From IMG/VR virus record IMGVR_UViG_3300029319_007985, positions 64,001-128,000 of that record: a DNA stretch of 64,000 nucleotides; one strand, 5' to 3'. Positions 4,100 through 51,551 of this stretch are shown one piece after another. Origin of the DNA: a virus. Under the pieces are notes generated by a model that made no database searches, was not told where the DNA came from, and saw only the letters and a list, made by a program, of their open reading frames with translations. Each line of letters starts with the position of its first letter. The stretch's first letter is position 1. A program made the position numbers and the translations under genes.

Positions 4100-4620
4100 T
4101 CCACGCAATGATTGACTTGGAAACCTTGAGCACTAATCCAAATGCTGTGGTTTTGACCATTGGGGGTGTAAAGTTTGATCCAAAGTCTCAGATGAAACCT
4201 TATGATGAAATGTATTTTCGAGTGGACGTGGACTCACAAACTAAAATTGGCAGGGACGTCATGCAAGAAACACTAGATTGGTGGGCACAACAACCAAAAG
4301 AAATATCGGAAGAAGCGTTATCTGATAGTGACAGGATTGACGTCAATAAAATGCTTGACGCTATCAATAAATTCTCAGTAGGAGTAGACGTATTTTGGTG
4401 CCAAGGCCCTTTATTTGACTACGCGATTTTACAAGATTTATACAGGCAAATGGGCAGACCTGTGCCATGGCAATACTGGCAAATCAGAGATAGTAGAACA
4501 CTTTTCAGTTTGGTGCCTAAACAAAATGATAAAAGAACTGGACTACACAATGCATTGGAGGATTGTAAGTATCAAGCACAGAAAGTTCAGAAAGTCTATA
4601 GGCAACTAGGAATAAAATGA
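4096..4620 (+). CDS. DEDDh 3'-5' exonuclease (phage DexA-like)
   Basis: MIDLETL, FDYAIL, RDSRT, HNALEDC. Confidence 0.85.
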   Translation: MIHAMIDLETLSTNPNAVVLTIGGVKFDPKSQMKPYDEMYFRVDVDSQTKIGRDVMQETLDWWAQQPKEISEEALSDSDRIDVNKMLDAINKFSVGVDVFWCQGPLFDYAILQDLYRQMGRPVPWQYWQIRDSRTLFSLVPKQNDKRTGLHNALEDCKYQAQKVQKVYRQLGIK

Positions 4621-5258
4621 AGATCTGTATAATATTTGGACATCACAATACCAAGGACAGTTTCAACGCCGCGATAAGAGATACTTTTATAGAAGAAGCA
4701 GAAAAGTGCGGACATCAAATAGACTTAATAAATTTGTTTGAAGAAAAAGAACAATTACCCTTTTACAATTCAAATATAAATCCACCACCCGAACTTGTAT
4801 TGGATTATAGAAAAAGATTAGAAAACAGTGACGTGATGTTCCTAATTGGTTCGTGCCACAATTTAAGGATGCCAACCATACTAGAAAATTGGATCGACTG
4901 GGTATTACACCCGAAATGGTTTTTCAGTTATAGGGCATTAGTGCCTGGCAGTAAATATTTTAAGAACTATGGTTACCCTGTGCCAGGAGCAATGAACGGC
5001 AAACTGGGATTGATATCTATGACATATGGTGGACCTATGGTGACCTATTTTAATTTTAGTTTATTTGACAATATTCCTTACAGAAGAATAAAGAAAGCCG
5101 TGTTTAACTTGGGAGGCATGGTCACGAAGTACATAAGGTTTTATTCTGTTTTACCTGGCATGGATAAGAAAGAATTTGATAGTCATATGAATAGAGTAAG
5201 AAAACTTGCCAGAAGTTTAAATCCAAACAAGAAGAAAAAAATAAGTTGGTGGGCATGA
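4617..5258 (+). CDS. Flavodoxin-fold NAD(P)H:quinone oxidoreductase-like protein
   Basis: IIFGHH...SFNAAI, MPTILENWIDWV, TYGGP. Confidence 0.75.
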   Translation: MKICIIFGHHNTKDSFNAAIRDTFIEEAEKCGHQIDLINLFEEKEQLPFYNSNINPPPELVLDYRKRLENSDVMFLIGSCHNLRMPTILENWIDWVLHPKWFFSYRALVPGSKYFKNYGYPVPGAMNGKLGLISMTYGGPMVTYFNFSLFDNIPYRRIKKAVFNLGGMVTKYIRFYSVLPGMDKKEFDSHMNRVRKLARSLNPNKKKKISWWA

Positions 5259-11110: not shown

Positions 11111-11659
11111 ATGCATTACAGAGAATTTATTGATAAAAGTTGTCCAAGAACAAAAGCAGAAAGTTGTTCTTGTGAAAGCATTAAGACATTGTCTGAACAG
11201 GCGTCTGATATAAAAGCATTTGTAGAACTTCAACACAGCGACAAAGTAAAAGGCACAATACTATTGATGCAGAAGCCTGGAACTCCAACTATGATCAAAG
11301 GAAGGATAGAAGGACTAACACCTGGCGAACATGGATTTCACATACATGAATTTGGCGACATGAGTGATGGATGTAAGTCAATGGGAGGACATTATAATCC
11401 AGACGGAGTTGACCATGGCGATCTAGAACAGGGACACGTTGGTGATCTTGGAAATGTATCCGCTGATGATTCCGGCATAGCAGACTTTACGATTGTGGCC
11501 AAGAGAGTTGACCTTGTTGGCGACAGATCGGTTGTTGGACGGGGTATGGTAATACACAAGGATGAAGACGATCTTGGTCGAGGTGGAGACGCAGAGTCCA
11601 AAAAAACTGGTAACGCTGGTGATCGACTGGCCTGCGGTGTGATTGTAATTAAAGAATAA
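11111..11659 (+). CDS. sodC: Cu/Zn superoxide dismutase with N-terminal extension, no signal peptide
   Basis: HGFHIHEFGD, GGHYNP, HVGDLGN, GNAGDRLACGVI. Confidence 0.93.
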   Translation: MHYREFIDKSCPRTKAESCSCESIKTLSEQASDIKAFVELQHSDKVKGTILLMQKPGTPTMIKGRIEGLTPGEHGFHIHEFGDMSDGCKSMGGHYNPDGVDHGDLEQGHVGDLGNVSADDSGIADFTIVAKRVDLVGDRSVVGRGMVIHKDEDDLGRGGDAESKKTGNAGDRLACGVIVIKE

Positions 11660-28256: not shown

Positions 28257-29024
28257 ATGAAATTATTAAATTGTGGATGTAGTTTTGCACATGGCTACAA
28301 TTCAATTCCACTTGATAATTATAACATTTTAAATCAACCTGGACTAATGAGTCCAGGCACCAAAAGAACTACCGCCACCGCTTACAAAAGTGCTGGTTGG
28401 CATCTAGCACAATCAAAAGATATGGAGTATATTGACATTGCACGTAATGGCAACAGCAATGAAGGGATATTAAGAACATTAAGAACTTACATCCATCTTA
28501 ATGACACAAAAGACTTATTCGTTTTGATCGGTTGGACACATGCATTTAGGAGAGAATACATGAGTGTGGTGACAGATAAAAACAAAAATGAATTTACTCA
28601 GTACAGAGAAATTCCAAGTTCTGGATCATTTTTAAATTCATTTGCCCAGGGAAAATCACCAATGATGGTTGAATTTAATGAAAGGAACTTCCGCCCTTTG
28701 GCATATGATGACCATATAGAATATAGACAATACAACATTATGTTGCAGGCACAACAGTTGTTACAACTAAAAAACATACCTTACCTCATGTACAATGCCT
28801 GTGGTAACGAGCATCAAAGCAATGACAGAGAAGTATTACAACTAAAAGATCAAATCGATAAGAAAAATTTTTTTAGATTTACAGGGCCAAGTTTTGATGA
28901 ATATGTTTTAGCCAACAGAATGTATCTTTCCAAAGATGGAGGACATCCTGGTCCAAAAGGACATCAACATCTTGCTGATTTATTAAGACCTAAGTTTGAT
29001 ACAATATTGACAAAAACCAACTAA
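28257..29024 (+). CDS. SGNH-hydrolase-like protein
   Basis: GCSFAHG, ARNGNSN, DGGHP. Confidence 0.55.
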   Translation: MKLLNCGCSFAHGYNSIPLDNYNILNQPGLMSPGTKRTTATAYKSAGWHLAQSKDMEYIDIARNGNSNEGILRTLRTYIHLNDTKDLFVLIGWTHAFRREYMSVVTDKNKNEFTQYREIPSSGSFLNSFAQGKSPMMVEFNERNFRPLAYDDHIEYRQYNIMLQAQQLLQLKNIPYLMYNACGNEHQSNDREVLQLKDQIDKKNFFRFTGPSFDEYVLANRMYLSKDGGHPGPKGHQHLADLLRPKFDTILTKTN

Positions 29025-29035
29025 AATACTATAAT
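29007..29035 (+). promoter_or_regulatory. Sigma70-type promoter for groES-petB
   Basis: TTGACA-N17-TATAAT; ATG follows after 7 nt. Confidence 0.82.
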
Positions 29036-29042
29036 TATAGAC

Positions 29043-29489
29043 ATGGGACAAATAGAAGATTTACAAAATAAAGGTTTTGGCAGTCACGGTGGAAGACAGT
29101 ACACCGTTGAATATGATATTACTCCATTAAAGAAACGTGTTTTGGTAACAAACATGAAATTTGGAGAGATCAAAACTGCCGGGGGAATAATTATACCTGA
29201 CGATGACGGTACCGAATCTGGCATACACCCGCGTTGGGCAGAAGTGTACGCAGTAGGTAGCAAACAGGAAGACGTCAAAGTAGGGCAATGGATATTGGTG
29301 GCTCACGGCAGATGGAGTAGATCTTTCAAAGTTAAAAAGAATGGAAAAGAATTTGAAGTGAGAATGATTGATGAAAATGACATTTTATTAGTTTCTGACG
29401 AAAGACCCGCTGACGAAACATCTAAAAAAGCAGGTTACGTAAACACTGGCGGTATGCAACAAATGACAAGTTTACCGGGAAATGATTAA
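29043..29489 (+). CDS. groES: Co-chaperonin GroES-like
   Basis: [30 protein letters not shown]. Confidence 0.82.
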
Positions 29490-30748
29490 TGGAAGAAGAA
29501 AAAAAATATAAACCAGTAAACACAAACAAAGTGGCGGAGAACACTTCGCCGTTCAAAGGTGTGTTAGGTTGGCTAGATAACAGACTGCCAGTATTCAGGA
29601 TGTTCAAGCACGAATACTTGGACTTCCAAGTACCAAAAACTTTGACATACTTTTGGAGTTTTGGAGCAATATTGACATTTTGTTTATTAGGTCTAATTAT
29701 AACAGGCCTAATATTAGGAATGCATTATAAACCATCTACGGCAGAAGCATTTGACAGTGTTGAAAAAATTATGCGTGATGTCAACTACGGTTGGCTGATA
29801 AGGTACATGCATATGAACCTGGCGTCCTTTTTCTTTATTGCAGTCTATATACACATGTTCCGCGGATTATATTTTGGTTCTTACAAATCACCTCGAGAAC
29901 TTATGTGGATCTTAGGATTAATAATTTATTTCTTAATGGTGGCAACTGCATTTTTAGGATACACTTTGCCATGGGGGCAAATGAGTTTTTGGGGAGCAAC
30001 TGTTATAACAAGTTTATTTGGAGCAATACCTTATATTGGTGAAACTATAACACATTGGTTATGGGGCGCCTACGCAGTTGACGATCCAACATTAAACAGG
30101 TTTTATGTATTGCACTGGCTTATAGCATTTCTAATTGTGGGTGTTGTGTTGTTTCATGTTATTGCACTACACATGACCGGATCAAACAATCCAACAGGAG
30201 TTGAACCAAAAGACACTAGAGATACTGTAAGTTTTCATCCTTATGTCACAACAAAGGATTTATTTGCATTTTTAGTTTTTATTGTAATATTCGCGGCATT
30301 TTTATTTTTCATGCCTAACTATCTTGGACACCCTGACAACTATATAAAAGCCAATCCGTTAGTGACACCTGCACATATTGTACCTGAGTGGTATTTTTTA
30401 CCTTGGTACGCAGTGCTAAGAGCGATACCTGACAAACTAGGCGGAGTAATTGCAATGGTGTCAGCGATCGGCGTAATAGGTTTACTGCCATGGCTAGACA
30501 CTAGTAAGATAAGAAGTTCTATATATAGACCAGTCTGGAAACAGTTTGTTTGGATTTTGGTTGCGGACTTCTTCCTTCTAATGTACTGCGGTGCTATGCC
30601 GGCGGAACAACCATTTGTTCTTTTGAGTCAAATAGGTACAGCATATTGGTTCTTATTTTTCTTAGTAATTGCACCGGTTGTGGGTTGGACCGAGAAACCT
30701 ACACCTCCCCCTGCGGCTATTCACTTATACAAAAAATCTAAAAAATGA
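29489..30748 (+). CDS. petB: Cytochrome b of the bc1 complex, full length
   Basis: Two His pairs 14 residues apart (YMHMN/YIHMF, LHWL/LFHV), [18 protein letters not shown]. Confidence 0.96.
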
Positions 30749-38542: not shown

Positions 38543-38570
38543 TTGACAGATTTCCAATCTGTAGTAAAAT
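38543..38570 (+). promoter_or_regulatory. Sigma70-type promoter for dnaJ-aox
   Basis: TTGACA-N16-TAAAAT; ATG follows after 6 nt. Confidence 0.75.
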
Positions 38571-38576
38571 AAATTA

Positions 38577-39428
38577 ATGAAAGACTATTATAAAATTCTT
38601 GGGGTATCCGAGGATGCATCTGCGGATGAAATAAAAAAAGCATTTAGGAAACTGGCCGTAAAGCATCACCCTGACCGAGGTGGAAATGAATTAAAATTTA
38701 AAGAGGCCAACGAAGCATACGATACCCTTAAAAACAAAAGTAAAAGACAAGAATACGATACACTGAGAAAGTATGGTAGTAACTTTGGCGGACAAGGTTC
38801 TGGTTTCCGATTCACATCAGGAAACTTTGATGAATTTTTTGGAGGTGATTTCTTTGAAGAATTTATGAGTGGCATGGGTGGAATGGGACGTAGACCTAAT
38901 TACAGGGCAAGGCCAAGAAACAATAAAGATGTTTCAATAAGGATTAATCTTAGTATTAAAGAAGTGATGCAAAGTGTTAAAAGAACAATAAGTGTAAAAC
39001 TGCCTAGTGGTCGAGATGAGATAGTAGATGTGAAGATAGGAGCAGGAGTGCAAAGTGGAGTTGTGTTCAAATATGCTGGACTGGGTGATGACACTGATAA
39101 AAATTTGCCAAGAGGAAATTTATTGATCCGAGTAACAGTGTTAGATTCTGATGGCTTTACACGAAAAGGAAATGATTTATGGACGGACAAAAGGATAGAT
39201 GCTTTTCAGGCCATGAGAGGTTGTGAATTTACTATACGTGATTTACAGGACAATGTTGTAAAGGTACATGTGCCTGCTGGTACTCAACCAGGAAGTGTTT
39301 TACAATTAAAAAGCAAAGGAATGCCGGTCCATGAGACTTTGTCGATACGTGGTAACATGTATATCAAAATACATGTCACTATACCTAAACTTAATGAATC
39401 AGAATTAAATAAAATAAAAGACTTATGA
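38577..39428 (+). CDS. dnaJ: Class B DnaJ (CbpA-like, no zinc finger)
   Basis: [13 protein letters not shown] region, C-terminal domain. Confidence 0.9.
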
Positions 39429-40039
39429 AAACTCCAGTAAACTTTTCAGATAAAGTGGCATATAGAATTACAATGTTCTTAAGGTGGACAGCAGACACCT
39501 TTTTCAAGAAGAGGTATGGACACAGAGCAGTTGTATTAGAGACCATTGCTGGTGTGCCTGGTATGGTCGCAGGTATGTGGAATCATTTAAGAAGTTTACG
39601 TAAAATGAAGCCAGATGACCGAGGGTGGATCAAAACTTTATTAGCAGAAGCAGAAAATGAACGTATGCATCTAATGATTTTTATTAGAATTGCAAAACCT
39701 AATTGGTTTGAACGTTGGATGATTATCACAGCGCAATTTATTTTCTGGCACTTCTATATGTTCTTATACATATTTTTTCCGCAATGCGCCCATAGGATGG
39801 TAGGTTATTTTGAAGAACAAGCCTGTATAAGTTACACAGAATATCTTAAAGAAATAGATGAAGGTAGGACAGAAAATATAAAGGCACCCAAAATTGCTAT
39901 TGATTATTACAACCTAAGTCAAGATGCAACATTACGTGATGTTGTCATAGCAGTACGAAAGGATGAAGAAGGACACAGAGATGTAAATCACGACATGGCA
40001 GATCAAATAAGAAGGAATAGGCACGGACTTATACATTAA
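39425..40039 (+). CDS. aox: Alternative oxidase (ubiquinol oxidase)
   Basis: [35 protein letters not shown] di-iron ligands. Confidence 0.93.
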
Positions 40040-40053
40040 TGTTTAAATAGATT

Positions 40054-40557
40054 ATGATGCAAATTTTTATAAATCCATATCACACTCTTAACACTGTCAG
40101 CACTGATGTGGATCTTGAACAAGGTATTCAAGGTTATAGCGACATAGAAAGATTTGAAAAAGATATGATCAATCTTATGGTTGCATCCAAAGGTATTGGA
40201 TTGGCCGCAAACCAACTAGGCATTACCAAGCGATTTTTCTGTATTGGCTATGAATCATTTGACGTTTTTAAAAAACCTGTTATACTATGGAATCCATTGA
40301 TAGTTAGAAGTTCTGAAGAAACTGTCGAGGATGTTGAAGGTTGTTTAAGTTTTCCAGGCGTATGGTTAAAAGTTAGACGACCAAAAAAAGTCACTGTAAG
40401 ATGGCAGAATGTTAAAGGAGAAATTTGTATGCAACATTTAGATAATTTGGAAAGTAAATGTTTTCAGCATGAACTAGACCATATAGATGGCATAACATTT
40501 GACAAACGGGTCTCAAAATTAAAATGGGACATGGCTAAGAAGAAAGCAAAAAAATGA
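40054..40557 (+). CDS. def: Peptide deformylase
   Basis: GIGLAANQ, EGCLS, QHELDH. Confidence 0.93.
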   Translation: MMQIFINPYHTLNTVSTDVDLEQGIQGYSDIERFEKDMINLMVASKGIGLAANQLGITKRFFCIGYESFDVFKKPVILWNPLIVRSSEETVEDVEGCLSFPGVWLKVRRPKKVTVRWQNVKGEICMQHLDNLESKCFQHELDHIDGITFDKRVSKLKWDMAKKKAKK

Positions 40558-42860
40558 TTGAATCAACAGACGACCTAGAACACATATTCGAACAAGCAGT
40601 AAAAGAGGCCGAGTCAAGAAGGCACGAATACGTTACTATAGAACATTTGTTACTTGCTTTAGTAAAAGATAAAAACATAGGTACAATTTTAGTAGACTTT
40701 AAAGTAAATGTTGGAGCATTGATAAAGGATCTAGAAAACTATCTTGATGACGAAGTTAAAGACATCATTGTAAAAGATAAATCAAAACCCGTTAATCCAA
40801 GAAAAACTGCTTCATTAGAAAGACTTATGAATAGAGCCTTTACTCAAGCACTATTTCAAGGAAGACAAGATCTTAAGCCAATTGATATACTGTTGAGTAT
40901 TTTTGCAGAAAAAAGAAGTTACAGTGCATTTTTATTGAAAAAGTTTAATGTTAACAAAGATGATATTACAGATATGGTCTCAGCAGAAAACATTATTGAT
41001 GAATCTGCTTTTGGTGGCTCTGGTCCTGAACAAAAATTAAGACCAGATCAAGCCGATAAGATATTAAGAAATTATACGGAGAATTTGAATCAAAAGTATT
41101 TTGATAAAAAAATTGATCCTGTTATCGGTAGAGAAGAAGAACTTCTTACTATTAAACAAACTCTTGCAAGAAGAAATAAAAATAATGTTTTATTAGTTGG
41201 TGACCCAGGAGTGGGTAAGACTGCCGTGGTCGAAGGATTGGCAAGACGCATAGCAAAAAACAAAGAGGATGTGCCGGAATACTTGAAGGATCATATAGTT
41301 TATAGTCTTGATGTATCTGGAATGATTGCTGGATCAAAGTTTAGAGGAGATTTTGAAGAAAGGTTAAAACTAATTTTGAATGCGCTTGAGAAGAAAGGCA
41401 AAACTATACTTTTCGTTGACGAGGCCCATATGATGGTTGGTGCAGGTTCAACAGGACAAGGAGGAGTGGATCTAGCACAGATGATCAAGCCGGTATTGAC
41501 CAAAGGGTCAATAAAAGTAATCGCTTCAACAACATGGGAAGAATTTAGGAAATTTTTTGACAAAGATCGTGCTCTGATGAGAAGATTTCAAAGGGTACAA
41601 ATAGGAGAGCCGACAAACGAAACTTGTAACAAGATCATCAAAGGTGTAAAACAATATTATGAAAAGTTCCATGGTTGCACTATCACGGACGAAGCATGTG
41701 AAGACGCTGTAGAATATTCAAGTAAATTTATCGCTGATAAAAAATTACCAGACAAGGCAATAGACCTAATGGACTCTGCATGTGCCAGACTAAGATTAAA
41801 AGGCATCAAAAATGGAAAAATTGATCATGACGAAATCATACATGAGGTAAGCAAAGTCACAGGTATTTCAATTGAACAACTATCACAAAAACAAGCAACT
41901 AATTTAAAAACATTAGAAGAAAAAATGAAACTGCAGGTATTTGGACAGGACGAGGCAATCAACACTATCACTGATAAAATTTTAGTTGCTAGGGCAGGCC
42001 TTAAAAGTTTAAACAAACCTGTTGGTAGTTTCTTGTTTTTAGGTCCTACAGGGTGCGGAAAAACTGAGACTGCAAGGCAACTTGCTAAAACACTAGGAGT
42101 TGAATTGCTAAGGTTCGACATGTCTGAGTATCAAGAAAAGCATTCAATTGCCAAATTAATTGGATCACCGCCAGGATACGTTGGCTACGAGGATAGTAAC
42201 ATGGGTGGTGGTATGTTTATCAATGAAGTAGAAAAGAATCCACACGCAGTTGTGCTGTTTGACGAAGTTGAAAAAGCACACAGAGATGTTTCGAACATGC
42301 TTTTACAAGTAATGGACTACGGTACAGTTACTGGCTCTAATGGTAAAAAGGCAGACTGCAGAAATATAACCTTGATCCTGACCTCAAACTTGGGTGCCGA
42401 GGAAATGGAAAAAGCAACATTAGGATTTGGTGACACACAGAGAACTGAAGATGATGATGCAATGAAAAGATTCTTCCCTCCAGAATTTAGAAATAGACTG
42501 GATGCTGTGATCAAGTTCAGTAAATTAGGCAAGGATACAATGAAGAAGATTGTTGGTAAGTTTTTACAAGAACTTAACACAATGACTATTGAAAAAGGTG
42601 TAGAAGTAAATGCCTCGGATGATGCAGTGGACTATCTGATTGACAAAGGTTTTGATGCAAAACTAGGAGCAAGGCCATTAAGCAGAATTATCGATGACGA
42701 GATTAAGAATCCGTTATCAAAAATGATACTGTTTGGTGAACTACAAGAAGGTGGCAGAGTAGAAGTAGCAATCAAAGATGATAAAATAAAAATTGACTAT
42801 AAAAAACCTGTGTCAAAAGACAAACCTAAGACAGTAAAGGCCAATGCGAAAACATCATAA
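40554..42860 (+). CDS. clpA: ClpA AAA+ unfoldase
   Basis: N-domain, two Walker A motifs (GDPGVGKT, GPTGCGKT), no ClpB M-domain, LGF loop. Confidence 0.9.
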   Translation: MIESTDDLEHIFEQAVKEAESRRHEYVTIEHLLLALVKDKNIGTILVDFKVNVGALIKDLENYLDDEVKDIIVKDKSKPVNPRKTASLERLMNRAFTQALFQGRQDLKPIDILLSIFAEKRSYSAFLLKKFNVNKDDITDMVSAENIIDESAFGGSGPEQKLRPDQADKILRNYTENLNQKYFDKKIDPVIGREEELLTIKQTLARRNKNNVLLVGDPGVGKTAVVEGLARRIAKNKEDVPEYLKDHIVYSLDVSGMIAGSKFRGDFEERLKLILNALEKKGKTILFVDEAHMMVGAGSTGQGGVDLAQMIKPVLTKGSIKVIASTTWEEFRKFFDKDRALMRRFQRVQIGEPTNETCNKIIKGVKQYYEKFHGCTITDEACEDAVEYSSKFIADKKLPDKAIDLMDSACARLRLKGIKNGKIDHDEIIHEVSKVTGISIEQLSQKQATNLKTLEEKMKLQVFGQDEAINTITDKILVARAGLKSLNKPVGSFLFLGPTGCGKTETARQLAKTLGVELLRFDMSEYQEKHSIAKLIGSPPGYVGYEDSNMGGGMFINEVEKNPHAVVLFDEVEKAHRDVSNMLLQVMDYGTVTGSNGKKADCRNITLILTSNLGAEEMEKATLGFGDTQRTEDDDAMKRFFPPEFRNRLDAVIKFSKLGKDTMKKIVGKFLQELNTMTIEKGVEVNASDDAVDYLIDKGFDAKLGARPLSRIIDDEIKNPLSKMILFGELQEGGRVEVAIKDDKIKIDYKKPVSKDKPKTVKANAKTS

Positions 42861-43461
42861 TAGATTGTATTTTGGCAAGTATTCACACAAAGCAACTTTT
42901 AGATTACCAGGACTTAACATTTTGTACCCAACAAGCGACTATTATATTTCTAGAGCAATAAGATATAAGGATCAAAGTTCAGATATTGTAAGATTTGCAA
43001 AATATTTAATGGAACACAGATCACAGATGAAATTCAGACTACAAAACAGAAGTTGTATTTTTTATAGCAGTAAAAAAATAATTTTAGAATCCATCAGCAA
43101 ATTTTGGGACTTTTGGGTGGACATAACATCAACTGATCCAAAACTTTCAATTTCTACAAATGATGTGGTGGTCTGTAAAAGATTGCCGTTAGGCAAATAC
43201 AATTATCAAGTCCATACAAAAAGAAAAATGTATACAAGGTTAAGTGACGCACAAAGGAGACTGCTAAGGTCATATCTGACACAAAATGACGATAACGCCA
43301 CTGTAACAAATAAAAATCTGAAGGCATATCTTAGTCTTAATGGCTTTTGGAGTGCTGACGTTAATTCTTATTTTTATGTAAAAGATGAAAAGGCCCTTAC
43401 GCCAATCTACATGATATCTAAAGATATTGTCGACAGAGTAATTAAATTTGTGAAAGTATAA
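42844..43461 (+). CDS. Hypothetical phage protein
   Basis: 205-aa ORF. Confidence 0.6.
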   Translation: MRKHHNRLYFGKYSHKATFRLPGLNILYPTSDYYISRAIRYKDQSSDIVRFAKYLMEHRSQMKFRLQNRSCIFYSSKKIILESISKFWDFWVDITSTDPKLSISTNDVVVCKRLPLGKYNYQVHTKRKMYTRLSDAQRRLLRSYLTQNDDNATVTNKNLKAYLSLNGFWSADVNSYFYVKDEKALTPIYMISKDIVDRVIKFVKV

Positions 43462-43767
43462 ATGATAGACATAATAACTAAATTAAAAGATAAAAAAATT
43501 TTTAAAGTGGACAGTCTAATAGAAGCAGAAGTAACAAAGACGTTTATGGGATCACCGGTTAATAAAAAAATTACCCTAAGGGTAAAACATTTATTTGACA
43601 ACTATTGTTTGGCGGACGAGGAAAAGTCTTTAGACTACAAAGTGCCCATGAGAAAAATCAAATATGAAAAAATAAAATTAATTGATGGTATGTTACCCGT
43701 AGAGTTAGCGGCTGTGTATGGACTTGCTCCTAAAACCGAAAGATTCAAGACCCGCAAAGAACAATAA
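43462..43767 (+). CDS. Hypothetical phage protein
   Basis: IDGM.P..LA.VYG. Confidence 0.6.
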   Translation: MIDIITKLKDKKIFKVDSLIEAEVTKTFMGSPVNKKITLRVKHLFDNYCLADEEKSLDYKVPMRKIKYEKIKLIDGMLPVELAAVYGLAPKTERFKTRKEQ

Positions 43768-43777
43768 ATAACAGCAT

Positions 43778-44359
43778 ATGGCACAAACAAGTTTAACGAT
43801 ATCTGGACAAAAAACTTTCAAGTCAGCAATAACAGTGACTGAAGGTTGCACATTTACAAGCACCAGTGGCACAAACAAGATTGCGGCCGCTTCAACTAGC
43901 CTAGCCGCTCTTTCAGTTAGGGATTTAATCACAATCACAGGCACCACAAGTAACAATGCCACGTTTACTGTGAAAAGTGTAGATAGCAATGGTACATTTA
44001 TTACAGTTGAAGAAACTGTGACAGCAGAAACATCAGATGGATCCACAGACACAGTTTTAACTTATTCAGGATTTGTCACTGACAAATTCAAAGGAGATGG
44101 TTACTACTCCCAGACAGATGGAAACCATACCGTTGCTTATCATGTCACCACCAGTTGCACCGGTTCAATCAAAATGCAAGGTTCACTGGCAACAACTCCT
44201 ACAGAAGATGACTACTTTGATATTGACGGCACGACATTTACAACGGATCAAAGCACCACAATAAGTTCTGTAAACTTTACAGGAAACTTTGTTTGGGTAA
44301 GAGCAAAATGCACCGATAATACTGCCGGCGCAGTAAGTAAAATCCTATATAATAATTAA
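43778..44359 (+). CDS. Thr/Ser-rich putative virion protein
   Basis: TAAATA at 43765; GNFVWVRA. Confidence 0.6.
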   Translation: MAQTSLTISGQKTFKSAITVTEGCTFTSTSGTNKIAAASTSLAALSVRDLITITGTTSNNATFTVKSVDSNGTFITVEETVTAETSDGSTDTVLTYSGFVTDKFKGDGYYSQTDGNHTVAYHVTTSCTGSIKMQGSLATTPTEDDYFDIDGTTFTTDQSTTISSVNFTGNFVWVRAKCTDNTAGAVSKILYNN

Positions 44360-44363
44360 TCAA

Positions 44364-44391
44364 TTGACAATCTGCCATTATAGTATACAAT
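44364..44391 (+). promoter_or_regulatory. Sigma70-type promoter
   Basis: TTGACA-N16-TACAAT. Confidence 0.65.
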
Positions 44392-50497: not shown

Positions 50498-50652
50498 GTT
50501 ACTGTTTAAATTGTGGCAACGAGTGCCACGAAGGAAAAGTGTTAACAAGAACTGAAAAAACTTATGCAGTAGAAGGTGCGAAGGAATACGAAATAGAAGT
50601 CTGTAAATATTGCAGATGTGAAGACGAATTAATGGATGCTTTAGAAGAATGA
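50494..50652 (+). CDS. Small Cys-rich protein, 52 aa
   Basis: CLNCGNECH...CKYCRC; ATGA overlaps at both ends. Confidence 0.65.
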   Translation: MSYCLNCGNECHEGKVLTRTEKTYAVEGAKEYEIEVCKYCRCEDELMDALEE

Positions 50653-51551
50653 AATTTTTAATATTCAATGGTAGTTTAAAGGCAGATGCAGAATCAAATA
50701 CTTTTGCTGTTTGCAAAATGTTACAACTGGCCTTTGATAAACTTGGACATGAATGTGAGATAGTCACATTGAGAGATCTTGACTACGAAGGATCAACTGA
50801 TGATGTAAATGATGAACTTAAACCTTATATCATGAAGATGTTCGACATGGACGGAATAATTTTTGCTACTCCAATTTGGTGGGGCACACATAGTTGTCAT
50901 ATCCAGGCCATGTTGGAAAGACTTGACTTTATATACAGTTGGGCCAAAGACAACAAGTATCAACCATTTTATAACAAAGTATTTGGCACATTAGTGTCAG
51001 GTGGTGGAGATGGATTCCAACACATTCACGGAGTACTATATTCAGCGGCATCTAATTTTGGATTTACTATTCCGCCGCAGTGTAACATCGAATCCAAGGC
51101 ACAGGGCATAGAAGAAATCAAAAAAGACGAAGACACTTACAACCAAGTTAAAAACTGTGCGACTAACATGACAGTCTGGGGAGAACTGATGAGAGCCGGA
51201 AATCCTACACTGGCGGCAAGGCACGGTAGTGTCGACGTAAACGAAGCACTGGCTGAAGGAAAAAGAATACCACGTAAAAAAGGACAAAAGAGGAAAAGCA
51301 AAAAACATAGTGACCTTTACACAGATGAAGATCCAAAAGGCACTATCCACGGACTAGGATTCAAAGACGAGGCCACAGCAAGAGCCAGTGTAACAAAAAT
51401 CCGAAAGAGCGGTAGATCACACGCACACAAGATACAGGCCGCAGTGGCAATGGAACAGAGAGCGAGAGCGGCAGGCAAATCAGGACCAGCGGCGATCTAT
51501 AGAAAATATATCAACAGCATGAAGAAAAAAACAAAGGCTAAGAAAAAATAA
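50649..51551 (+). CDS. Flavodoxin/FMN reductase fused to a basic C-terminal module
   Basis: FNGSLK...SNT, FATPIWWG; VNE|ALAE|GKRIPRKK. Confidence 0.8.
   Translation: MKFLIFNGSLKADAESNTFAVCKMLQLAFDKLGHECEIVTLRDLDYEGSTDDVNDELKPYIMKMFDMDGIIFATPIWWGTHSCHIQAMLERLDFIYSWAKDNKYQPFYNKVFGTLVSGGGDGFQHIHGVLYSAASNFGFTIPPQCNIESKAQGIEEIKKDEDTYNQVKNCATNMTVWGELMRAGNPTLAARHGSVDVNEALAEGKRIPRKKGQKRKSKKHSDLYTDEDPKGTIHGLGFKDEATARASVTKIRKSGRSHAHKIQAAVAMEQRARAAGKSGPAAIYRKYINSMKKKTKAKKK

Follow-up and report, generated by a model that had tools for sequence, protein, structure and literature searches.

Can a marine phage bring a respiratory oxidase of its own into the cell that it infects and, if so, which oxidase is it and what would it be for? 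The question is raised by a 64,000-nucleotide stretch of viral DNA (hereafter the window), namely bases 64001-128000 of the 172,389-bp IMG/VR record IMGVR_UViG_3300029319_007985 (labelled G000 here), in which a first-pass annotation had pointed to an alternative oxidase (AOX). The gene in question is an open reading frame (ORF) running from ATG to TAA:

39425-40039, + strand: aox, AOX-clade di-iron ubiquinol oxidase of 204 amino acids (aa)

In the reading that we favour, at a probability of roughly 60%, its product is a working AOX, i.e. a ubiquinol:oxygen oxidoreductase, which the phage carries as an auxiliary metabolic gene and which would act as a safety valve of the quinone pool in a heterotrophic host. 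Viral steering of host energy metabolism is known best from the psbA and PTOX genes of cyanophages, the textbook example; the counterpart in the ocean's heterotrophic bacteria, which are far more numerous, has barely been studied.

The identity of the enzyme as an AOX-clade di-iron quinol oxidase is secure. Namely, the protein matches the Pfam AOX family (PF01786) with an E-value of 7.5e-82 and 274.6 bits over profile positions 14-216 of 216, and it matches trypanosome AOX of known structure with E 3.9e-50 (PDB 3vv9; likewise ~4e-50 for 9kun) at ~46-50% identity over the whole catalytic core; no NCBIfam model matches it. The di-iron ligands are E39, E79, H82, E130, E181 and H184, equivalent to trypanosome E123, E162, H165, E213, E266 and H269, and the catalytic tyrosine is Y137 (trypanosome Y220), where the ligands were located by script and the equivalences were assigned by hand from the printed alignment. 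Four of the ligands form two ExxH motifs, E79-x-x-H82 and E181-x-x-H184. In the quinol pocket, R34, L38 and A133 are kept (trypanosome R118, L122 and A216), while trypanosome T219 is replaced by Ser136, with serine also found in all bacterial sequences sampled. What is more, the six ligands and the tyrosine are kept in 152-153 of 153 viral homologues. The first-pass annotation had reported AOX-type motifs, AENERMHL among them, and all di-iron ligands; both quoted motifs, the six ligands and the tyrosine were indeed found, and that observation was correct in all details. The predicted fold agrees. An AlphaFold2 model, built on an alignment of 35 homologues with a mean predicted local distance difference test score (pLDDT) of 91.4, has six long helices and shows the four-helix-bundle di-iron core with the extra membrane-binding helices, and Foldseek superimposes it on 3vv9 with a TM-score of 0.90 and a root-mean-square deviation of 2.0 A at 46% identity, the next folds being ferritins at E 0.15 at best.

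Is the enzyme, then, an AOX in the narrower sense, or is it the related PTOX? Pfam puts AOX and PTOX in one family, and PHROG 4235, the PTOX family, gives a marginal match to the phage protein (E 0.00099, 20 bits, partial coverage). One could therefore propose that it is functionally a PTOX, that is, a plastoquinol oxidase for a cyanobacterial host, as in cyanophages. We consider this extremely improbable. On the Pfam AOX profile the phage protein scores 275 bits, as opposed to 40 for the PTOX of P-SSM4 and 42.4 for that of S-SCSM2R; the PTOX motifs HHLL and GWxRR are not present on direct reading of the phage AOX region; and a tblastn search of the phage AOX against 50,697 deposited phages at E 1e-3 returned no cyanophage PTOX. 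In a 236-row tree, PTOX forms an outgroup on a branch of 5.9 substitutions per site, whereas phage AOX nests among bacterial AOX, with eukaryotic AOX separate. Moreover, photosystem genes were not found in this phage and its cytochrome b, described below, is of the bc1 type. In other words, the AOX/PTOX phylogeny proposed as a check by the earlier annotation came out in favour of its claim of a true AOX, and a PTOX identity is contradicted by both phylogeny and profile scores.

Side by side with this, two published viral cases deserve mention. The gene of the cyanomyovirus S-SCSM2R, a Synechococcus phage, described as 'alternative oxidase (AOX), ORF180' (PQ898602.1, 155271-155627; L175) reaches 42.4 bits on the Pfam AOX profile and, because this resembles the 40 bits of the PTOX of Prochlorococcus phage P-SSM4, is PTOX-type; what PMC12801897 says about bacterial AOX is therefore not pertinent to this gene. 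As for the prasinovirus 'alternative oxidases', the tree of their own authors shows them to be PTOX (bioRxiv 10.1101/2024.10.02.616384). Judged by profile and phylogeny, the published viral 'AOX' genes that could be checked (S-SCSM2R, prasinovirus) are thus PTOX-type.

The relatives of the phage enzyme itself are numerous and largely marine. In a protein search, the best 120 of at least 8000 matches were 94-100% identical to it; most stem from the marine data of Tara, ENA and JGI, and the longest contig measures 311 kb. Two pattern scans of IMG/VR, which gave sets without overlap, yielded 160 AOX loci with 114 distinct proteins. C48C1 is the only deposited phage with an AOX (tblastn, 50,697 phages), at 55% identity and annotated as 'hypothetical protein'. 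As for cellular genomes, a pattern scan of 185,579 species representatives found Polynucleobacter at 65-70% identity and three closer contigs, which are taken up below, while among 401 evenly sampled alphaproteobacterial genomes 40 have an AOX, at 41-67% identity, and the closest matches come from genomes of 1.2-1.3 Mb. In a tree of 130 rows (IQ-TREE, LG+C20, short search), 73 of the 74 non-redundant viral sequences form one clade together with C48C1 and one unlabelled metagenome protein, with an SH-like approximate likelihood ratio (SH-aLRT) support of 87. It divides into a subclade V1 of 39 rows (support 95), which holds the AOX of the window, and a subclade V2 of 35 rows (support 99), which holds C48C1. 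Its neighbours are Polynucleobacter, joined by a single viral contig, then a fusion of AOX with old yellow enzyme (OYE), and then a clade of small-genome Alphaproteobacteria, while eukaryotic AOX (Cyanophora, Galdieria, a nematode and a sea anemone) makes up a separate group. The tree thus suggests, with moderate confidence, a virus-specific AOX clade apart from the sampled bacterial and eukaryotic enzymes; the support of the joint viral clade is itself moderate, and the viral and Polynucleobacter rows were gathered by similarity to the query.

Two neighbours of the clade are of interest in their own right. The lone viral AOX that groups with Polynucleobacter (support 96) lies on IMGVR_UViG_3300045911_000143 (L177), which may be a freshwater phage with a host-derived gene or else a host fragment. 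The fusion protein (P0122, 584 aa, from a marine metagenome cluster of 28 members) joins an AOX at residues 2-195, 65% identical to the phage AOX, to an Oxidored_FMN/old-yellow-enzyme domain at 234-559, is found on contigs as long as 363,636 bp and adjoins the viral and Polynucleobacter AOX in the tree. On paper, it could be a self-contained route from NAD(P)H to O2 through quinone. It was not found as a fusion in IMG/VR, where the AOX part alone was matched.

What kind of genome carries the gene? The G000 record is linear and, because CheckV puts its 172 kb at 47% completeness, the full genome would measure roughly 360 kb. Nearly all genes of the window share one strand, and phage hallmark genes lie on either side of aox:

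14.7-25.9 kb, upstream of aox: baseplate and tail-fibre genes
56.9-59.6 kb, downstream of aox: T4-type DNA polymerase

The polymerase is nearest to those of Sinorhizobium phage Phosso (49%), Agrobacterium phage Atu_ph07 (44.5%), Salicola SCTP-2 and the PBECO4 group, i.e. jumbo myoviruses of Alphaproteobacteria and enterobacteria. Neither psbA nor psbD turned up in any of five AOX phages searched, G000 and four others, and a megablast of 20 kb around aox against deposited phages gave no match. The carrier is a large uncultured marine myovirus with an Atu_ph07/Phosso-like polymerase and not a cyanophage; the cyanophage framing of the first-pass annotation has to be abandoned, on account of the polymerase, the lack of psbA/psbD and a cytochrome b that is not b6.

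With a linear record at 47% completeness, it is natural to ask whether aox might be a passenger or an artefact, that is, a gene of the host brought in by a chimeric contig, or a hitch-hiker in decay that does nothing for the phage, the more so as three 'cellular' contigs from metagenome-assembled or single-cell genomes hold close homologues. Several lines of evidence make this very unlikely. First, not counting the possible source sample, 12 marine metagenome runs from 6 studies contain at least 0.8 of the words sampled from the 5-kb dnaJ-to-clp stretch in which aox is embedded (see below), and because of this recurrence the arrangement is real and widespread. Second, the flanks are viral on both sides and on one strand; the gene occurs as a single copy in the 172-kb record, and its GC content is 36.4%, next to 37.2% for the window. 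Third, against its 23 closest viral copies aox has nonsynonymous divergences (dN) of 0.03-0.06 and synonymous divergences (dS) of at least 0.8, giving dN/dS ratios of 0.009-0.054 (about 0.03), which indicates strong purifying selection, and the catalytic residues are kept across the 153 viral copies. Fourth, two of the three 'cellular' contigs are themselves phage. Recurrence, hallmark flanks and selection together contradict the passenger or artefact reading, and the gene has the features of a phage auxiliary metabolic gene: it lies within a viral genome, has viral flanks, recurs and shows the mark of purifying selection.

The three contigs may be described briefly. PBPT01000016.1 (L004; 'Candidatus Neomarinimicrobiota RS350', 335,231 bp) has an aox locus 100% identical to an IMG/VR contig and is phage DNA because it carries, besides aox, a gp23-type major capsid gene; NHDJ01000025.1 (L003; 'Verrucomicrobia TMED56') is phage DNA because it matches a radical-SAM array of G000 at 70-87% identity. 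Both were binned with bacteria. CABZJG010000069.1 (L041), from the Rhodobacteraceae single-cell genome AG-337-I11, has at the end of an 8.9-kb contig a frameshifted AOX that is 76-84% identical to V1; its other ORFs match no viral locus, and its GC content is 44% over the AOX and ~48-50% elsewhere, which is not decisive. It may point to the host of one AOX-phage lineage, or it may be chimeric.

The viral lineage of aox does not simply follow that of its carriers. A 134-kb myovirus contig that encodes sheath, portal and baseplate proteins (G405) shares 19 detectable ORFs with G000 at a median identity of 28.6%, and yet the two aox genes are 93.6% identical in protein and 84.9% in DNA, with the DNA similarity confined to aox, from its ATG to ~7 bp before the stop. 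By comparison, a true relative of G000 (G406; 63 colinear ORFs, median identity 58.7%) has an AOX that is only 78% identical. Because of the 93.6% identity against a median of 28.6%, and the restriction of the DNA similarity to the ORF, the gene has been exchanged between phage lineages as a single-ORF cassette; as dS is about 1, this exchange was not very recent.

The neighbourhoods of aox bring up a different explanation of its purpose. Namely, AOX could serve to lower intracellular O2 or reactive oxygen species and so protect the oxygen-labile Fe-S enzymes of the radical-SAM/SPASM family that these phages encode. Within 3 kb of aox, 34 of 79 V1 loci have a radical-SAM homologue (12 of 79 have hsp20), and in relatives of G000 (G406, L090, L091 and the TMED56 contig) aox is enclosed by the radical-SAM/SPASM array, with a homologue of an array gene on either side. 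The G405 copy lies in a run with two radical-SAM genes and overlaps the genes next to it at both ends. G000, too, has at 152-168 kb of the record, beyond the window (L158), a tandem array of at least five radical-SAM/SPASM paralogues with a carbamoyltransferase, and at 1-3 kb (L159) a separate radical-SAM gene adjoining an Asp/Arg-hydroxylase-like gene. That said, the G000 array has no aox inside it; aox lies ~50 kb away, in a chaperone unit. The gene directly 3' of aox in G405 is Asp/Arg-hydroxylase-like, i.e. of an O2-dependent oxygenase family, and among V2 loci (L176-L255, also L071 and L074) a radical-SAM neighbour is seen in 1 of 79, the usual neighbour being nrdB (within 3 kb in 31 of 79), whose product, the small subunit of ribonucleotide reductase, is an O2-requiring di-iron protein. 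It is also doubtful, on general reasoning, that an appreciable drop in O2 could be achieved in a very small cell in air-saturated seawater. On balance, we find O2 scavenging an unlikely primary function and return to the quinone-pool valve and to the setting of aox in G000 itself.

In G000, the gene is the second cistron of a compact run on the + strand:

38543-38570, + strand: sigma-70-type promoter-like site TTGACA-16-TAAAAT, 11 of 12 consensus positions, ending 6 nt before the dnaJ ATG
38577-39428, + strand: dnaJ-like co-chaperone, 283 aa (Pfam DnaJ 4.2e-22, DnaJ_C 2.6e-31)
40054-40557, + strand: peptide deformylase, 167 aa (Pfam Pep_deformylase 2.4e-39)
40554-42860, + strand: ClpA/ClpB-family AAA+ unfoldase with two ATPase domains, 768 aa (Pfam Clp_N, AAA, AAA_lid_9, AAA_2, ClpB_D2-small)
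42844-44359, + strand: three ORFs (205, 101 and 193 aa) that end the same-strand run, no Pfam match
44364-44391: next strong promoter-like site

The TGA stop of dnaJ overlaps the aox ATG as ATGA, the deformylase gene (def) follows 14 nt 3' of aox, and its stop overlaps the start of clpA/B. Not one of the 160 IMG/VR loci has aox in this dnaJ-def-clp setting. The window contains six sites of the strict pattern TTGACA-N16-17-TAWAAT, always on the + strand, where 0.24 would be expected by chance, and a count of six was reached in 0 of 100 shuffles. In two of the six cases the end of the site is followed, 6-7 nt further on, by the ATG of a chaperone gene, to which a respiratory gene is translationally coupled:

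3587, 9739, 27119, 29007, 38543 and 62879, + strand: sites of the strict promoter pattern
29007-29035, + strand: TTGACA-17-TATAAT site, seven bases before the groES-like gene
29043-29489, + strand: groES-like gene (Pfam Cpn10 3.8e-10), with a TAATG overlap with the cytochrome b gene
29489-30748, + strand: bc1-type cytochrome b, 419 aa (Pfam Cytochrome_B 3e-69, Cytochrom_B_C 3.2e-40)

In other words, aox and cytochrome b are each the second cistron after a chaperone gene and a host-type promoter-like site. Because the promoter-like site ends six bases before the ATG, the dnaJ-aox-def-clpA/B transcript is probably leaderless, and the four genes probably constitute an early unit, promoter use and timing being judged here from the arrangement of the sequence.

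The second of these pairs bears directly on a broader idea of the first-pass annotation, which had combined AOX with a PetB, two flavodoxin-fold reductases and SodC and had proposed that the phage could control both exits of the quinol pool. A full-length cytochrome b is indeed present; because its N and C domains both lie in one 419-aa protein, it is of the bc1 type and not b6, i.e. not a PetB. The other members stood up to the Pfam searches, with matches to Sod_Cu and FMN_red:

11111-11659, + strand: SodC, Cu/Zn superoxide dismutase (Pfam Sod_Cu 6.5e-45)
4617-5258, + strand: flavodoxin-fold reductase of the FMN_red family, copy 1 (PF03358 profile, 37.4 bits, over 4617-4907 of the window, G000 68617-68907)
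50649-51551, + strand: FMN_red-family reductase, copy 2, with a basic C-terminal extension (Pfam FMN_red 3.7e-16)

No cytochrome b was found in the 5 other AOX phage records, including the complete C48C1 and a 340-kb record (91% complete), and because of this the pairing of AOX with cytochrome b is not a conserved module among AOX phages. Control of both exits is weakened accordingly as a general notion; it is possible as a specialty of this lineage and not as a trait of AOX phages at large.

How would the enzyme act during infection? We picture the following course of events. The host RNA polymerase would read dnaJ-aox-def-clpA/B from the near-consensus sigma-70 promoter as a leaderless transcript, with translation of aox coupled to that of dnaJ through the ATGA overlap. 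The enzyme would settle at the inner membrane, on its cytoplasmic side, in a heterotroph that respires with ubiquinone, and electrons would pass from ubiquinol to O2 with formation of water and without proton pumping, bypassing bc1 and cytochrome c oxidase. With host gene expression and the control of respiration in disarray, the quinone pool would thereby stay oxidised. The quinone-linked dehydrogenases, NADH dehydrogenase among them, could then go on turning over and so sustain the flux of carbon and the supply of nucleotides, and less superoxide would be formed. That the host is a heterotroph is suggested by the lack of psbA in the five AOX phages and by a table in the study of pelagimyophages, the T4-like phages of SAR11, where 'Alternative oxidase AOX' is entered for pelagimyophages alone and 'PtoX' for cyanomyophages alone (Table S5 of Zaragoza-Solas et al. 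2020, mSystems; PMC7029224). The same table also holds hsp20, peptide deformylase, carbamoyltransferase, PstS and a B12 receptor (PMC7029224), and Hsp20, peptide deformylase, carbamoyltransferase and a PstS-like protein were confirmed in the G000 phage.

A close variant of this picture places the trigger elsewhere. AOX might serve to bypass a haem-copper branch that has been blocked by nitric oxide (NO), sulfide or cyanide, by phage shut-off of bc1 and oxidase synthesis, or by host defence. AOX resists cyanide, NO and sulfide, and Vibrio fischeri AOX relieves NO stress according to Dunn 2018, as cited in PMC12801897. What is more, the phage would re-supply cytochrome b, the core subunit of bc1, from a similarly built putative early unit, which fits with keeping quinol oxidation going after host shut-off. 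Against this, no inhibitor is indicated by the sequence and the five other AOX phages are without cytochrome b. The proposal largely overlaps with the quinone-pool valve, from which it differs in the trigger alone; we consider it improbable as a separate explanation.

Several findings weigh against the quinone-pool valve, and should be noted here. The diagnostic motifs of AOX, quoted in the PASV preprint from Nobre et al. 2016 as ERMHLMT and LEEEA, read ERMHLMI and FEEQA in the phage protein. As plant enzymes served to define these motifs, failing to match them exactly does not disqualify a protein, and phenylalanine in place of the leucine of LEEEA is the majority state among the bacterial AOX sampled. 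Two changes are more specific to viruses: trypanosome E215, the third glutamate of LEEEA, is replaced by glutamine in the phage AOX and in 72 of 153 viral copies but in no cellular one, and W247 is replaced by tyrosine in 152 of 153 viral copies, the cellular ones sampled having mostly tryptophan. Such departures may entail altered kinetics or an altered substrate. As to expression, the dnaJ/aox junction is covered by one contig from a metatranscriptome (run X15, 39035-39521, ~96% identical); it is weak evidence of transcription, with DNA carry-over possible and no transcript start shown by such contigs. Contigs from RNA libraries are patchy over the stretch, their gaps and depths being uninformative, and three of the four runs gave only short or diverged pieces over aox. 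In addition, no phage DHODH or NDH-2 that would link AOX directly with nucleotide synthesis was found in 172 kb of a genome that is about half complete, and the neighbours of aox vary by lineage (radical-SAM arrays, nrdB, hsp20, dnaJ), indicating no single pathway.

If one goes a step further, a more ambitious view can be formulated, which we offer tentatively and hold to be possible at best. Namely, phages of marine heterotrophs would keep their own exchangeable AOX lineage, marked by W247Y and in part by E215Q, and in the present phage AOX would be one half of an early programme that rebuilds the quinol-oxidising branch, with the groES-like/cytochrome b and dnaJ/aox units setting the split between pumping and non-pumping electron flow. 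In a variant of the same view, AOX would be mainly an O2 sink for the radical-SAM chemistry of the phage. If true, this programme would be the respiratory mirror image of the psbA/PTOX/deformylase set of cyanophages.

Irrespective of that, the ~160 viral relatives mean that many marine phages carry a conserved, mobile and predicted non-proton-pumping terminal oxidase. If the enzyme is active, infected cells would burn reducing power at a lower energy yield, and this would bear on estimates of respiration and carbon-use efficiency for virus-infected plankton. Moreover, some of what counts as 'prokaryotic AOX' in ocean metagenomes is viral, as in the two contigs above that had been filed under bacterial phyla.

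It is instructive, finally, to set the phage enzyme against the known systems. With trypanosome AOX (3vv9, 9kun) it shares the helical bundle (TM 0.90), the six Fe ligands and the counterparts of Tyr220, Arg118, Leu122 and Ala216; it differs in having Gln for E215, Tyr for W247 and Phe for L212, and in lacking the N-terminal dimerisation arm and the targeting peptide (204 versus 329 aa), as bacterial AOX does. Characterised bacterial AOX enzymes are those of Novosphingobium aromaticivorans and Vibrio fischeri. The bacterial AOX closest to that of the phage, from Polynucleobacter and small-genome Alphaproteobacteria, are alike in length (~200-230 aa), 57-70% identical and equipped with the same ligand set, but these cellular sequences fall outside the viral clade. 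The AOX of pelagimyophages (PMC7029224) is likewise listed as an auxiliary gene of T4-like phages, and not for cyanomyophages; the listing is a single table line, and the paper neither analyses the sequence or its phylogeny nor discusses the gene. Of the two pelagiphage papers, neither brings up AOX in its main text; it appears only in Table S5 of one of them, and our search of the full-text literature found no study of a phage AOX-clade enzyme. The novelty implied by the first-pass annotation is therefore lower than it had seemed, as pelagimyophage AOX was already on record in that table. The present carrier belongs to another myovirus lineage, of ~360 kb and with an Atu_ph07/Phosso-like polymerase, and has its aox in a dnaJ-def-clp unit. 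New are the jumbo-phage carrier, the chaperone-coupled, probably early unit with its cytochrome b twin, a clade specific to viruses and its signature residues, the evidence that aox is exchanged as a cassette, and the finding that the published viral 'AOX' genes that were checked are PTOX. As for cyanophage PTOX, both it and the phage AOX are virus-borne di-iron quinol oxidases of the same Pfam family, and PTOX is thought to be an electron-overflow valve in infection; yet PTOX oxidises plastoquinol in the thylakoids of phototrophs and lies beyond the tblastn reach of the phage AOX. By analogy, the phage AOX would be the respiratory counterpart of cyanophage PTOX.

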